Shown here: piece after piece, positions 55,129 to 59,965 of the stretch
Numbering within the stretch: the first letter of the stretch is position 1
Layout of the letters: the number at the start of each line of letters is the position of its first letter
Origin: Promethearchaeota archaeon
GTDB taxonomy: Archaea > Asgardarchaeota > Lokiarchaeia > Sigyniarchaeales > SOKP01
Reading direction: 5' to 3'
Assembly (NCBI GenBank): GCA_019058245.1
Contig: JAHPZJ010000028.1
Coordinates: 128,001 to 192,000, forward strand
Length of the DNA: 64,000 nt
Notes under the pieces: model-generated
The model's input: the letters and a program-made list of their open reading frames with translations, nothing else
The model's database searches: none
What the model was told of the DNA's origin: nothing
Made by a program: the position numbers and the translations under genes

Positions 55129-55953
55129 ATGCCTTATTTTAAGAACCAAGAGGGTTACAATTTATATTATGAAAACATAAATTCGGATTCAAATAAGTGC
55201 ACCATTATTTTACTCCATGGATTCGCTTCATCTGCTTCTTTTTTTAAGGCTCAAATAAGTATTTTAAAAGAGGATTATCGAATTATTGCTTTTGATGCAT
55301 TAGGGCATGGGAGAAGTGAGCACCCAAAAGAACTCAATCTTACAAAAAATCTAAGACATGATATCATAAGAGATTTAGAAGATCTTCTAAGATTTTTAGA
55401 TGTAGATGAACAATATGGTATAATTGGGCATTCTTTAGTTGGTGGAATGATAGGTCAATTATATACAATGAAGCATCCAACAGATGTCAAATTTTTAATT
55501 TTATTGAATTCAGGGTATATTATGATAGATAATGTTGTTAGAAATATTTTTTATAATCTACTCCCATATTTTATCAGAATGAATTTTTTGGATGTAGTTG
55601 CAAATTCAGTTGAAAAGTTGTTAGATAAAACAATTCCTTATATCATTACCGCTTTATCAGGTAGTTTACCAGGTTTAAATCTAACAAAAGATCAATTATA
55701 TATGCAAATTGAAGATCAAATTTTTAGAATGATCCATGAAATTAAAGAATATGAACCTAATATTACTTGTCCAACACTTATAATTGGAGGAAGGCTTGAT
55801 AATTTTGCTCCAGAACAAATGTCAGAAAAATTACACCAGATGATTCCACACTCTACATTAGAAATTATTGATATGGCAGGTCATTTTGCTCCAGCTCAAA
55901 GAAAAGAGGTAGTTAATGAATTAATAAGTAATTTTATTAGAAAGATTAGATGA
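55129..55953 (+). CDS. Alpha/beta hydrolase
   Basis: Motifs LLHGF, DALGHGRS, GHSLVGG and AGH. Confidence 0.92.
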   Translation: MPYFKNQEGYNLYYENINSDSNKCTIILLHGFASSASFFKAQISILKEDYRIIAFDALGHGRSEHPKELNLTKNLRHDIIRDLEDLLRFLDVDEQYGIIGHSLVGGMIGQLYTMKHPTDVKFLILLNSGYIMIDNVVRNIFYNLLPYFIRMNFLDVVANSVEKLLDKTIPYIITALSGSLPGLNLTKDQLYMQIEDQIFRMIHEIKEYEPNITCPTLIIGGRLDNFAPEQMSEKLHQMIPHSTLEIIDMAGHFAPAQRKEVVNELISNFIRKIR

Positions 55954-55988
55954 AGGAAAAAAATCACAAACAAAATATAAATAGCTTT

Positions 55989-56435
55989 ATGTCAATGAAT
56001 GTTCTAATATCAATTAAACCAAAATATGTGAAGAAAATCGAAAAAGGAGAGAAAAGATATGAATTTAGGAAATCAATATTTAATTGCAAAAAAATAAATT
56101 TTATTTATATTTATTGTACTACACCAATTAAAAAATTAGTTGCTCGATTTAAGATAAAAAAAATTATTGAGGATACTCCATTAAATTTATGGGAAAAATA
56201 TAGATTTTTTGCCGGTATTAACAAAAATGAGTTTTTTAATTATTTTGAAGGAAAGATCAAAGGGTATGCCATAAAAATAAAAGATTTAGAATTCTTTAAA
56301 AATTCTGTTGATCCATATCAAATTTGGTCAGATTTCATCCCTCCTCAGTCTTTTCGTTATATTGAAGATATCCCTTATACTTTTGATATAGTAAAAAGCA
56401 ATGAAAATAATAATTTAGAAATTAAAAAAGCATGA
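55989..56435 (+). CDS. Stand-alone ASCH (PUA-like) domain protein
   Basis: VLISIKPKYVKKIEKGEKRYEFRK (GxKxxExR), YCTTP and PPQSFRY. The ORF opens at 55950; the likely start is 55989 or 55995. Confidence 0.9.
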   Translation: MSMNVLISIKPKYVKKIEKGEKRYEFRKSIFNCKKINFIYIYCTTPIKKLVARFKIKKIIEDTPLNLWEKYRFFAGINKNEFFNYFEGKIKGYAIKIKDLEFFKNSVDPYQIWSDFIPPQSFRYIEDIPYTFDIVKSNENNNLEIKKA

Positions 56436-56526
56436 AGAGATCATTCTTCATGAAAAATCTTAAATTTAATTGAAGAAGTTTAAATTGATTAGAATTTATT
56501 TATTTTTAAATTATAAATGATTCAAT

Positions 56527-57879
56527 ATGACCAGTAAATCTAATTTAAATTTAGAAATTCGAGAAGCTGTCAAAGAGGATTTTGAATTTGTTGAAGGTAT
56601 GATGTGTCATGCTTTAGAACCTTATTATGGTGGAGACCATAAAGCCCATGCCAAAAGAATATTAATGACTCATCTCTCTGGAGGAATTGATAAAATTGGA
56701 CATTTTTCATTTGAACAAAAAATGTTCATTCTGTGCTTAAATAGTAAAACCGTGGGAATGATTCATCTCGTTGGAAAGCGTCAGGGTACTTATAAGATCA
56801 GTCCAATTATAATTGATAAACCTTTTAGAGGAAAATATGGTTTAGGATCGGTTCTTCTTGAGCACGCTGAAAATTATGCCATTAAAAAGGGAGCAAGGCA
56901 AATATATTGTACCGTAGCTGAAGAGAATGAGGAAGCCCAAAGTTTTTTTTTAGAAAAAGGATATATAATAGCTGGAAAATCAGAAAGTCACTATAAATAT
57001 GGTATTACAGAGCTAATGATGTATAAAATATTTTTAGAACCAAATTTCGATGAAAAATTTGACAGACCTAATATTTCGGTTCATTTATTAGAAAAAAAAT
57101 ATGAACTACAAGTTTCAGATTTTTTATTAGAAAAACTTCCAGAGCACTTCATAGGAATTGATTTGAAATGGATTGATGCACTTTTTAAAGGATTTTATAG
57201 AAGAAATTCTAGGAATATAAACTTAAAATTTAAACTTATTTTTGTTGCTATAGATAGATATGATAATGTCTTAGGAATTGCTGGTGCTACTCCAAAGAAA
57301 GGAGAACCCATCAAAATTATGCCGTTTTTAGCGAAAACATTACCAGCATTTGTAGCACTATTATCAGATATTCCATTTGAACTAAGAGACTATGGTCATA
57401 AACTATATATTCATATAACACCCTCCGTTGAGGAAACAATAGCGTTACAGCAAAATGGATGGAAACTTGATGCTGCAATGCCAGAAGCATATCAAGAAAA
57501 AATAATAACTCAACAATGGAGTTTAGATATTGATGATCCAAATTTTGCGCGTATTATCCGCACAAAGAAGAAATATCTTGATTTGATGAAGAAAAATAAA
57601 AAAACAATTGAAGTTAGAGTAGCATATAAAAAAATGAAATCAATTAAAAATGGTGATAGAGTAAAATTTCGATGTCGTAACAGTTCATACACTACTACTA
57701 TTAAAGATATTAGATATTATTGTTCTATTAAAGAATTACTCGAAAGTGAAGATTCAAATAAAATTATTCCAAATCGGTCTAAAGAGGAGGTGTTGAAAAT
57801 ACTAAAAGATATTTATCCCGAAAAATTAGAAAATCTTGGTATGATGGCATTAGAATTAAATTTAAACGAGAAGAAATAA
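56527..57879 (+). CDS. GNAT acetyltransferase + second GNAT-like domain + C-terminal ASCH domain
   Basis: IREA..ED, FRGKYGLGSVLL (acetyl-CoA motif), N..AQSFFLEKGY. The middle segment repeats the GNAT pattern. The C-terminal YLDLMKKNKKTIEVR...GDRVKF...IYP is ASCH. Confidence 0.85.
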   Translation: MTSKSNLNLEIREAVKEDFEFVEGMMCHALEPYYGGDHKAHAKRILMTHLSGGIDKIGHFSFEQKMFILCLNSKTVGMIHLVGKRQGTYKISPIIIDKPFRGKYGLGSVLLEHAENYAIKKGARQIYCTVAEENEEAQSFFLEKGYIIAGKSESHYKYGITELMMYKIFLEPNFDEKFDRPNISVHLLEKKYELQVSDFLLEKLPEHFIGIDLKWIDALFKGFYRRNSRNINLKFKLIFVAIDRYDNVLGIAGATPKKGEPIKIMPFLAKTLPAFVALLSDIPFELRDYGHKLYIHITPSVEETIALQQNGWKLDAAMPEAYQEKIITQQWSLDIDDPNFARIIRTKKKYLDLMKKNKKTIEVRVAYKKMKSIKNGDRVKFRCRNSSYTTTIKDIRYYCSIKELLESEDSNKIIPNRSKEEVLKILKDIYPEKLENLGMMALELNLNEKK

Positions 57880-57880
57880 T

Positions 57881-58204
57881 ATGAGACGTCTTATTTTTAA
57901 AAAAGAATATCTAAAGCTCATCCTACAAGGAAAGAAAGTTTTAGAAGGAAGAGTTGGATATGAAAATATTAAGAAATTGAAGACGGGAGAAATTATTTCT
58001 CTAAACGGAAAATATAATGCAAAGATAATAAAAATTCAAAAATTTTCGAGTTTTAAGGAGGCATTGAATATAAATAATTATAAAAAGCTATTACCAAATG
58101 CTTCATCTATAGATGATGCTTTAAATATATATAGCAATATCTATCCCTTGTGGAAACAAGAAAAATTAGGTGTATTTATTTTAGAAATTAAATATCCATT
58201 ATAA
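57881..58204 (+). CDS. Stand-alone ASCH domain protein (same subfamily as the fused ASCH upstream)
   Basis: EYLKLILQGKKVLEGR, FSSFKEAL and IYP...KLGV; starts 1 nt after the GNAT-ASCH stop. Confidence 0.88.
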   Translation: MRRLIFKKEYLKLILQGKKVLEGRVGYENIKKLKTGEIISLNGKYNAKIIKIQKFSSFKEALNINNYKKLLPNASSIDDALNIYSNIYPLWKQEKLGVFILEIKYPL

Positions 58205-58394
58205 ATCTGAAACAAAAATAGCTTCTTATAGTTTTAACCAAATTATGAATTAAAAAATTGACAGTTTAGGAACTTTTTTTAATAGTATTATTCAATTTGA
58301 ACTCTTGTATTCAAATATAATAAATAAAAAGGAACTATATTTATTAGTAAGAGAAGAAAACTAAATTAAAAATATTCATAAATCTAAATTAAAG

Positions 58395-59423
58395 ATGAAG
58401 AATAATAATGAAACTATTTTTGTATTTGCATCTGGTTATCGAGATCTATATAAAAAAGAAATTTATAATACACTAGCTTATCCATCAGAATTTTTGATGC
58501 ATTTTAGATATCGTTTAAAATGGGTAAGTTTAGAGATTTCAAATCACATTTCTTTAGAAGGTAAAAATCTTATTGTGATCGCGACAATTGAGCTAGATGA
58601 TCAAAACAAAAATAAAAACCAGAAATTCATGCCATTGAGAAAAGGTAAGATTATATCTACTTCTAAGGATGGTGATACCTTACATATATATTTTGAATTA
58701 TCGAAAGATTGGGTTTTATATGAGGATAACTCCAATGATAGAATAGATTTATATGATACAATTATTAAAAGAGGGGGTAATCCTTCCAATGGTGTTGCTG
58801 TTGCATTTGGGAACGCTCATAATTTTAAATTCTCTAATGATGATTTAGCATGGGTTTATATAATTAATAGGCTTGTTGAATTTCCAGAATATCAAAATTC
58901 TCTTTTTTTTAGATTAAACTCTGTTACAAGAGTTCCTAATAATAAACCTCTTGAATTAAAGAAATTAGATCCTTTTACCAATGGATATATTCTTAAAAGA
59001 AGAAAAAATTATATTTTTGATTTCTCATTCAATTTTGGGCATGAGCCACCAGAAAACGCGAAAAGTGCTAATTTTGAATTAAATAGCGATGAAATCCTAA
59101 AAATATTTCCCAATAAGTTGATGTTGGGATTTAGAGTCGACAAAAAACATTTTTTTGTTTCTCCTAGTAGTCATTCTTCTAATGAGAGAACAATTATCTC
59201 TACTAAAATAAAAGGTACTATTGAAGCCCCATTATTGGAAATTCCAATAAGGGTTACAAAAAATAAATTATTATATGGCTTATATTTATTTTTGATTTTA
59301 CTTGGATTAATTTTTATAAGTTTACCTTTGGCAGAAAATATTTTAGGTGTGACTTTAAAACTATGTGGTGCTATTTCTACAGCTCTAGGGACTTTTTTAA
59401 TAAATTATTATACAAAATATTAA
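58395..59423 (+). CDS. Hypothetical protein with large soluble N-terminal region and two C-terminal TM helices
   Basis: 342 aa; hydrophobic hairpin LLYGLYLFLILLGLIFISLPL / LGVTLKLCGAISTALGTFLI at the C-terminus. Confidence 0.75.
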   Translation: MKNNNETIFVFASGYRDLYKKEIYNTLAYPSEFLMHFRYRLKWVSLEISNHISLEGKNLIVIATIELDDQNKNKNQKFMPLRKGKIISTSKDGDTLHIYFELSKDWVLYEDNSNDRIDLYDTIIKRGGNPSNGVAVAFGNAHNFKFSNDDLAWVYIINRLVEFPEYQNSLFFRLNSVTRVPNNKPLELKKLDPFTNGYILKRRKNYIFDFSFNFGHEPPENAKSANFELNSDEILKIFPNKLMLGFRVDKKHFFVSPSSHSSNERTIISTKIKGTIEAPLLEIPIRVTKNKLLYGLYLFLILLGLIFISLPLAENILGVTLKLCGAISTALGTFLINYYTKY

Positions 59424-59590
59424 TCATTGCGATAGAAAATCAAATTTGGAATAGAGTTTTATTTTAATAGTAGAAATTAGTTAATTTTCTTTATATTTCA
59501 AATCATTTTTAAATTAGATTTATAATAATAATTTTAAAAATAACCTCAACTAAATATTAAACATCATATATATTTAAAAACAATATTAAA

Positions 59591-59965
59591 ATGCGAAAGA
59601 ATTCAAATAATAATGATAATACAATCTCTATTTCTTATTTTAAAGAAAAAGTTAGGGAATTTGTAAAAGAACGCAAATGGGAGAAATATCAAACACCTCA
59701 AAATTTGATTCAAGCTCTTGGAATTGAGATTTCGGAATTGTCACAATTATTTCTTTTTAAGGATTATTCAATAGAAGATATCAAAAATAATAATCATCTT
59801 TTAAAAAATCTTTCAGAGGAAATCGCAGATGTTTTCATTTATCTAATATGTCTTGTAAATACCTTAAATTTTGATCTTACAGAAATATTTATAAAAAAAA
59901 TGGAAAAAAACAAGGAAAAATATTCAATTACAGAGTTTAACAATGGAATATATTATAAAAAATAG
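59591..59965 (+). CDS. MazG-like all-alpha NTP pyrophosphohydrolase, DCTPP1/RS21-C6-like
   Basis: FVKERKWEKYQTPQNL..AL.IE..EL, EEIADVFIYL and KKMEKN.EKY. Confidence 0.9.
   Translation: MRKNSNNNDNTISISYFKEKVREFVKERKWEKYQTPQNLIQALGIEISELSQLFLFKDYSIEDIKNNNHLLKNLSEEIADVFIYLICLVNTLNFDLTEIFIKKMEKNKEKYSITEFNNGIYYKK

Follow-up and report, generated by a model that had tools for sequence, protein, structure and literature searches.

In the 64,000-nt stretch of Promethearchaeota archaeon contig JAHPZJ010000028.1 analysed here (the window, whose positions are used for all gene coordinates), the region 55950–59965 is represented by a gene for an AmiF-related enzyme with tandem GNAT and ASCH domains, an optional free ASCH gene and two unrelated defence-type genes, located before a resident gene of a DCTPP1-like pyrophosphatase. 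The tandem GNAT-ASCH gene, the second of five genes numbered in order along the region and called below the core gene, is read, with a probability of roughly 0.6, as encoding a predicted enzyme that acylates cytosine N4 from acyl-CoA and has both a fused and a separate eraser, situated in a small defence-type islet. New here is the homology, at the sequence level, of its tandem GNAT to the amiF-position gene of amicetin clusters. The five open reading frames (ORFs), 55950–56435, 56527–57879, 57881–58204, 58395–59423 and 59591–59965, are intact and all have the same orientation, and the motifs GEKRYEFR, NKKTIEVR and GKKVLEGR were all found in the sequence. Pfam placed ASCH domains in genes 2 and 3 and, below its threshold (E 0.0017), in gene 1; it also detected GNAT in gene 2 and a MazG-like domain in gene 5. 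A preliminary description of this DNA, which had reported five co-oriented genes with these motifs, is accurate in this respect, the ORFs being uninterrupted and the domains confirmed by Pfam, profile or model.

The core gene (56527..57879, plus strand), assigned by Pfam, predicted fold and amiF-position homology, encodes a protein of 450 amino acids (aa) with a confident predicted fold of two GNAT-type domains and ASCH (pLDDT 92.9). GNAT1 (approximately residues 8–170) contains the acyl-CoA loop; in GNAT2 (approximately residues 180–335) the CoA loop is lost, yet the domain is highly conserved. The second repeat was recognised by a weak profile-comparison match (E 0.009, 144 columns) and by a GNAT-like secondary-structure pattern in the model. 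The ASCH domain (residues 340–448) belongs to the PH0355/PF0469 type, and its residues K359, E362 and R364 are invariant in 43 fused sequences. Relatives of the core gene with 50–63% identity were found in scattered bacteria and archaea; no relative was found in IMG/VR, and GenBank phages gave one ASCH-only match. The GNAT-GNAT-ASCH family consists of several hundred uncharacterised proteins, and in the literature searched no published description was found of this fusion or of the function of the PADLOC candidate system PDC-M11, to which gene 1 belongs. Some family members carry N-terminal extensions: that of P0078 is a SARP-type regulator (Trans_reg_C + BTAD), and those of P0082, P0088, P0098, P0100 and P0102 are unannotated segments of 110–190 aa.

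AmiF, of the amicetin/plicacetin cluster, was reported by Zhang and colleagues in 2012 to join p-aminobenzoate (PABA) to cytosine N4 through an amide bond. Of 400 genomes from a Streptomyces-like genus rich in SsgA, four carry tandem-GNAT relatives, in two cases within complete one-directional clusters. These clusters contain, in order, genes of ADC lyase, dehydratase, reductase, (nucleoside triphosphate transferase), GNAT-GNAT-MazG, glycosyltransferase, methyltransferase, nucleoside deoxyribosyltransferase, an unknown protein and a reductase, followed by genes of CoA ligase, ADC synthase, DegT, ABC-F, TetR, MFS, an unknown protein, SHMT and an adenylation enzyme. The amicetin cluster runs in one direction, with amiA, encoding ADC lyase, as the first gene and amiP encoding TetR (PMC7040171), and AmiG is cited as a glycosyltransferase (PMC4278220). 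Counted from amiA to amiP, allowing one uncalled gene at position B, the GNAT-GNAT-MazG gene occupies the sixth position, that of amiF. The window tandem GNAT shows 32–33% identity over approximately 330 aa to the two amiF-position proteins (E 7e-58 and 4e-59); the match covers both GNAT domains, and 45 of the 67 family-invariant residues are kept.

Two tandem GNATs are closer relatives, with 38–42% identity; one lies within a second nucleoside cluster and the other near it. This Streptomyces-like cluster (L159:741-10757) contains genes of a tandem GNAT, a separate MazG, deoxyribosyltransferase, radical SAM, DegT, MFS-like and ABC-F proteins, and resembles blasticidin-type clusters; the second tandem GNAT (L158:5902-6945) lies 14 kb away. 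A plasmid search revealed a Rhodococcus protein in which both GNAT domains (hhalign probability 99.9%) are fused to a DCTPP1-like domain, not to ASCH. The GNAT-GNAT-DCTPP1 fusion is carried in an amicetin-like cytosine-deoxysugar cluster of the Rhodococcus sp. 2G plasmid NZ_CP018064.1 (L143:7956-16930) and of locus L147, with no PABA or non-ribosomal peptide synthetase genes in the stretch read. Both C-terminal domains found fused to the tandem GNAT, ASCH or DCTPP1-like, come from cytidine-handling families. As judged from sequence, the tandem-GNAT family is tied to cytosine chemistry because of the homology, the neighbours and the two alternative fused domains. Similar to AmiF, the core protein has a homologous tandem GNAT paired with a cytidine-handling C-terminal domain, although the amiF-position proteins carry a DCTPP1/MazG-like C-terminus where it has ASCH. 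AmiF is encoded in a cytosine-nucleoside biosynthetic cluster, whereas the core gene has ASCH, a gene with two membrane helices (2TM gene) and resident metabolic genes as neighbours, is paired with a free ASCH and has spread singly or as a pair of genes.

Among solved structures GNAT1 gave generic matches only, namely, to RimI, Ard1, Naa50, NatC and small-amine enzymes (E 1e-4 to 1e-8), and GNAT2 gave none. The presence of RimI, Ard1, Naa50 and NatC among the best fold and sequence matches would suit a protein or aminoacyl-tRNA N-alpha acetyltransferase of RimI/NAT-like or toxin-like type, with ASCH merely targeting it to RNA or the ribosome. We consider this unlikely, because those matches span GNAT1 only, whereas the amiF-position proteins match both GNATs with E 1e-58, and because, apart from ASCH, no conserved antitoxin-type neighbour was detected. 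Type II GNAT toxin-antitoxin systems (AtaRT/TacAT) combine a single GNAT with an adjacent ribbon-helix-helix antitoxin, whereas the core gene encodes a tandem GNAT and only ASCH recurs beside it. That the tandem GNAT acylates cytosine at N4 is favoured, somewhat above even odds. By analogy, the proposed role of the GNAT is that of the ac4C (N4-acetylcytidine) writers TmcA/NAT10; these are housekeeping enzymes with an ATP-helicase and a tRNA-binding domain, whereas the core protein has neither and its distribution is patchy. PF05127 was not found in the window's genome.

All three ASCH domains of the window keep K-x-x-E-x-R, and thus the Lys/Glu dyad of G-x-K-x-x-E-x-R. Glu-type ASCH proteins hydrolyse N4-acetylcytidine: in a set of 19 ASCH proteins that contained Glu-type members, every one removed ac4C from tRNA, Lys and Glu being essential (bioRxiv 10.64898/2026.02.27.708502). 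The earlier caveat, in which the replacement of Thr by Glu spoke against hydrolysis, must therefore be withdrawn. In contrast to these Glu-type deacetylases and to E. coli YqfB, the window domains are fused to, or located beside, a candidate writer. The fused and free ASCH match the Pyrococcus PF0469/PH0355/PF0455 structures 1xne, 2z0t and 1s04 (E 1e-13 to 1e-18); Pyrococcus proteins were tested in the same preprint, although their sequences could not be matched to the window ASCH domains, and the natural role of ASCH erasers is posed there as an open question (bioRxiv 10.64898/2026.02.27.708502).

Gene 3 (57881..58204, plus strand; Pfam, tree) starts 1 nt after the core gene and encodes a free ASCH with K-x-x-E-x-R intact, a predicted trans eraser of N4-acylcytidine. 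In a neighbourhood sample of 88 loci with the core gene, corresponding to 60 lineages at 85% identity, a free ASCH of approximately 110 aa adjoins the core gene in 33 lineages; it is convergent with the core gene in 19, lies downstream in the same orientation in 8 and upstream in 6. Another 19 lineages with adequate flanks lack it, and in 8 the flanks are too short to tell, so the pair is present in 33 of the 52 assessable lineages. The arrangements cluster on the GNAT tree and therefore reflect few origins of the pair, not 33. The free partners fall into approximately four ASCH clades; the window copy is probably a duplicate of the fused ASCH domains, since its clade is sister to them (support 100/97). 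The free ASCH is optional, because most members of the window's own core-gene clade do without it, including three metagenome-assembled genomes without any other ASCH match. A modelled complex between the core protein and the free ASCH scored 0.31 against a mark of 0.32 and is not used as evidence.

The predicted pathway would begin with the binding of acyl-CoA, most likely acetyl-CoA, by GNAT1, while GNAT2, having lost the CoA loop, would help to build the cytosine-nucleoside site common to AmiF-type enzymes. Without an ATP-helicase such as that of TmcA, the enzyme would acylate the N4 amine of cytosine in a nucleoside, a nucleotide or single-stranded nucleic acid. Its fused ASCH would bind or hydrolyse N4-acylcytidine, so that the product is limited or edited, and the free ASCH would serve as an optional trans eraser, protecting the cell's cytidine pool and tRNA from the mark. 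Gene 1, with its orphan PDC-M11B ASCH, and the EVE/YTH-Ig-2TM gene 4 would be separate defence-type cargo gathered at one site. If this is true, N4-acylcytidine can be made by a second route that needs no ATP, in addition to that of TmcA/NAT10/TmcAL, the family is the first writer with a genetic link to ASCH erasers, and an enzyme of antibiotic biosynthesis is connected with a mobile family of uncultured microbes; a specific chemistry is thereby proposed for the several hundred GNAT-GNAT-ASCH proteins.

The same N4-acylation chemistry could serve detoxification, in which foreign cytosine nucleosides (antibiotics, analogues or damaged nucleotides) are acylated while native cytidine acylated by mistake is recycled by ASCH, a difference in role only. 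The relatives in cytosine-nucleoside clusters, the patchy single-gene spread and the lack of consistent defence neighbours agree with such a role, but N4-acylation builds amicetin rather than inactivating it, and nearly the whole family retains an ASCH domain of nucleic-acid type, so detoxification appears rather improbable. A conflict role of the GNAT-ASCH pair is given less than even odds. Its full form seems doubtful: a helicase-free, switchable system in which the AmiF-like enzyme would acylate (d)CTP or invader cytosines during infection, causing dCTP depletion or marking of the invader, the ASCH domains would reverse the self mark, and the EVE/YTH-Ig-2TM protein would read modified bases and trigger membrane damage. 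The 120 neighbours of the core gene, examined with no control set, gave scattered PADLOC and Pfam matches, mostly to ATPases and kinases of generic type, and no clear defence enrichment. The defence-type setting proposed in the preliminary description is supported for genes 1 and 4, given the PDC-M11B match and relatives beside defence genes.

The left flank of the insertion site is formed by a resident gene of an alpha/beta hydrolase (55129..55953, plus strand; Pfam and congener synteny). Orthologues of gene 5 were found in 41 of 53 congeneric genomes and those of the hydrolase in 40. In all 40 congeners with both genes on one contig the hydrolase is directly followed by gene 5 (empty site), with 34–74 nt between the matches in 37 of them and 157, 167 and 1034 nt in the other three. 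For this reason gene 5 is regarded as resident and positions 55954–59590 as an insertion of 3.6 kb with four genes, where congeners have a short spacer. The resident block hydrolase-DCTPP1-DUF3795-purC is interrupted by this accessory insertion, which consists of three unrelated parts: the GNAT-GNAT-ASCH gene with the free ASCH, the orphan gene 1 and the 2TM gene. The core gene was not found among 134 genomes of the host's taxonomic family, nor the 2TM gene among the 53 congeners. GC content and GC at third codon positions of the region are the same as those of the flanks, and inspection of the insertion site by eye showed no target-site duplication. An 8-bp inverted repeat with flanking A-runs at 56431–56452, where gene 1 gives way to the core gene, scores as a minus-strand terminator; a promoter scan, not suited to all hosts, gave chance-level matches. 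One congener (L134, G069:C7) has approximately 1 kb of extra DNA at the hydrolase-DCTPP1 site, which is possibly a recurrent insertion point.

Gene 5 (59591..59965, plus strand), located outside the insertion, matches DCTPP1/RS21-C6 structures of the MazG fold (E 1.6e-12) with the metal-binding acidic motifs aligned, as the preliminary description had predicted. His34, present in 15 of 15 congeners and in DCTPP1, is replaced by Gln. Identity to congeners is 61%, against 74% among the congeners themselves, and the flanking genes show no such gap; two congeners' copies depart from the consensus as often as the window copy. The insertion may have been followed by relaxed selection on gene 5 or by its co-option. 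As a part of a module, a role also suggested earlier, gene 5 is disfavoured by its residence in congeners, although the GNAT/DCTPP1 link does exist elsewhere as a fusion protein.

Gene 1 (55950..56435, plus strand) at the left end of the insertion encodes an ASCH of PADLOC type PDC-M11B (E 2.4e-47), contrary to the earlier expectation that no named match would be found. The family match begins at residue 14–16, and the true start is therefore probably 55989 or 55995. (PIN)-GNAT-EVE + ASCH operons were described by Bell et al. 2020 (PMC7641849) and are listed in PADLOC as candidate PDC-M11. Five congeneric orthologues of gene 1 all directly follow a PIN-GNAT-EVE gene (PDC-M11A); among these complete PDC-M11 loci (L121–L125), one lies beside a HEPN protein and another beside a TIR protein. 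Gene 1 is the PDC-M11B ASCH of such operons, and the logic of GNAT with a PUA-like domain is also theirs, but PDC-M11A is absent from the window locus, and the core gene belongs to another family. PDC-M11A was not found in the window's 76%-complete genome, and gene 1 is an orphan of this catalogued candidate system. Assignment of the core gene itself to PDC-M11A was rejected (PADLOC E 0.0009, hhalign probability 12.6%; no PIN, no EVE). An apparent remnant of the end of PDC-M11A before gene 1 was not counted, being largely forced by the overlapping ASCH start.

Gene 4 (58395..59423, plus strand), the 2TM gene in the right part of the insertion, is modelled as an EVE/YTH-like domain (approximately residues 5–158), an Ig-like beta-sandwich (approximately 168–290) and two membrane helices. 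The C-terminal transmembrane hairpin noted earlier is borne out by two long hydrophobic helices at the end of the protein. No sequence-level match was obtained for the EVE/YTH domain, and Foldseek recovered only the Ig part. In contrast to the modified-base readers EVE (THYN1) and YTH (Mmi1), the EVE/YTH-like domain is followed here by an Ig-like domain and two membrane helices; no Pfam or PADLOC name was found for this arrangement. The family is large and unnamed (1401 clusters), its closest relatives adjoin Druantia or restriction genes, and the core GNAT gene is present in none of the five informative 2TM-family loci. The model makes this family a candidate in its own right for a sensor of modified bases that carries a membrane effector. 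At L099 and L100 a NurA-HerA pair adjoins a lone DruA and a 2TM-family gene, and the family proteins P0173, P0187, P0204, P0227 and P0231 have N-terminal HAD phosphatase or radical SAM fusions.

The preliminary description had united all five genes in one writer/reader/sanitiser/effector system. Such a unit could be supported by PUA-like domains in all four inserted genes, by the existence of GNAT-DCTPP1 fusions and by the greater than usual divergence of the resident DCTPP1. A further hint, the only one of joint recurrence, is a 393-aa ORF directly after a GNAT-GNAT-ASCH gene (L027:1911-3092) with a weak 2TM-family match (E 1.4e-4). Against it stand the residence of DCTPP1 and equal departures in two congeners, the derivation of gene 1 from PDC-M11 and the 2TM-family loci without the GNAT gene. 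Among ORFs of at least 70 aa next to the core gene only ASCH recurs, while genes similar to gene 1, the 2TM gene and the MazG-like gene were each found near it in one lineage of 60, the first two as weak matches. A five-gene unit is thus very improbable and largely refuted by synteny; the acylated-cytosine writer/eraser logic, undermined for the five genes together, is retained for the GNAT-GNAT-ASCH and ASCH pair through its amiF-position homology and recurrence.

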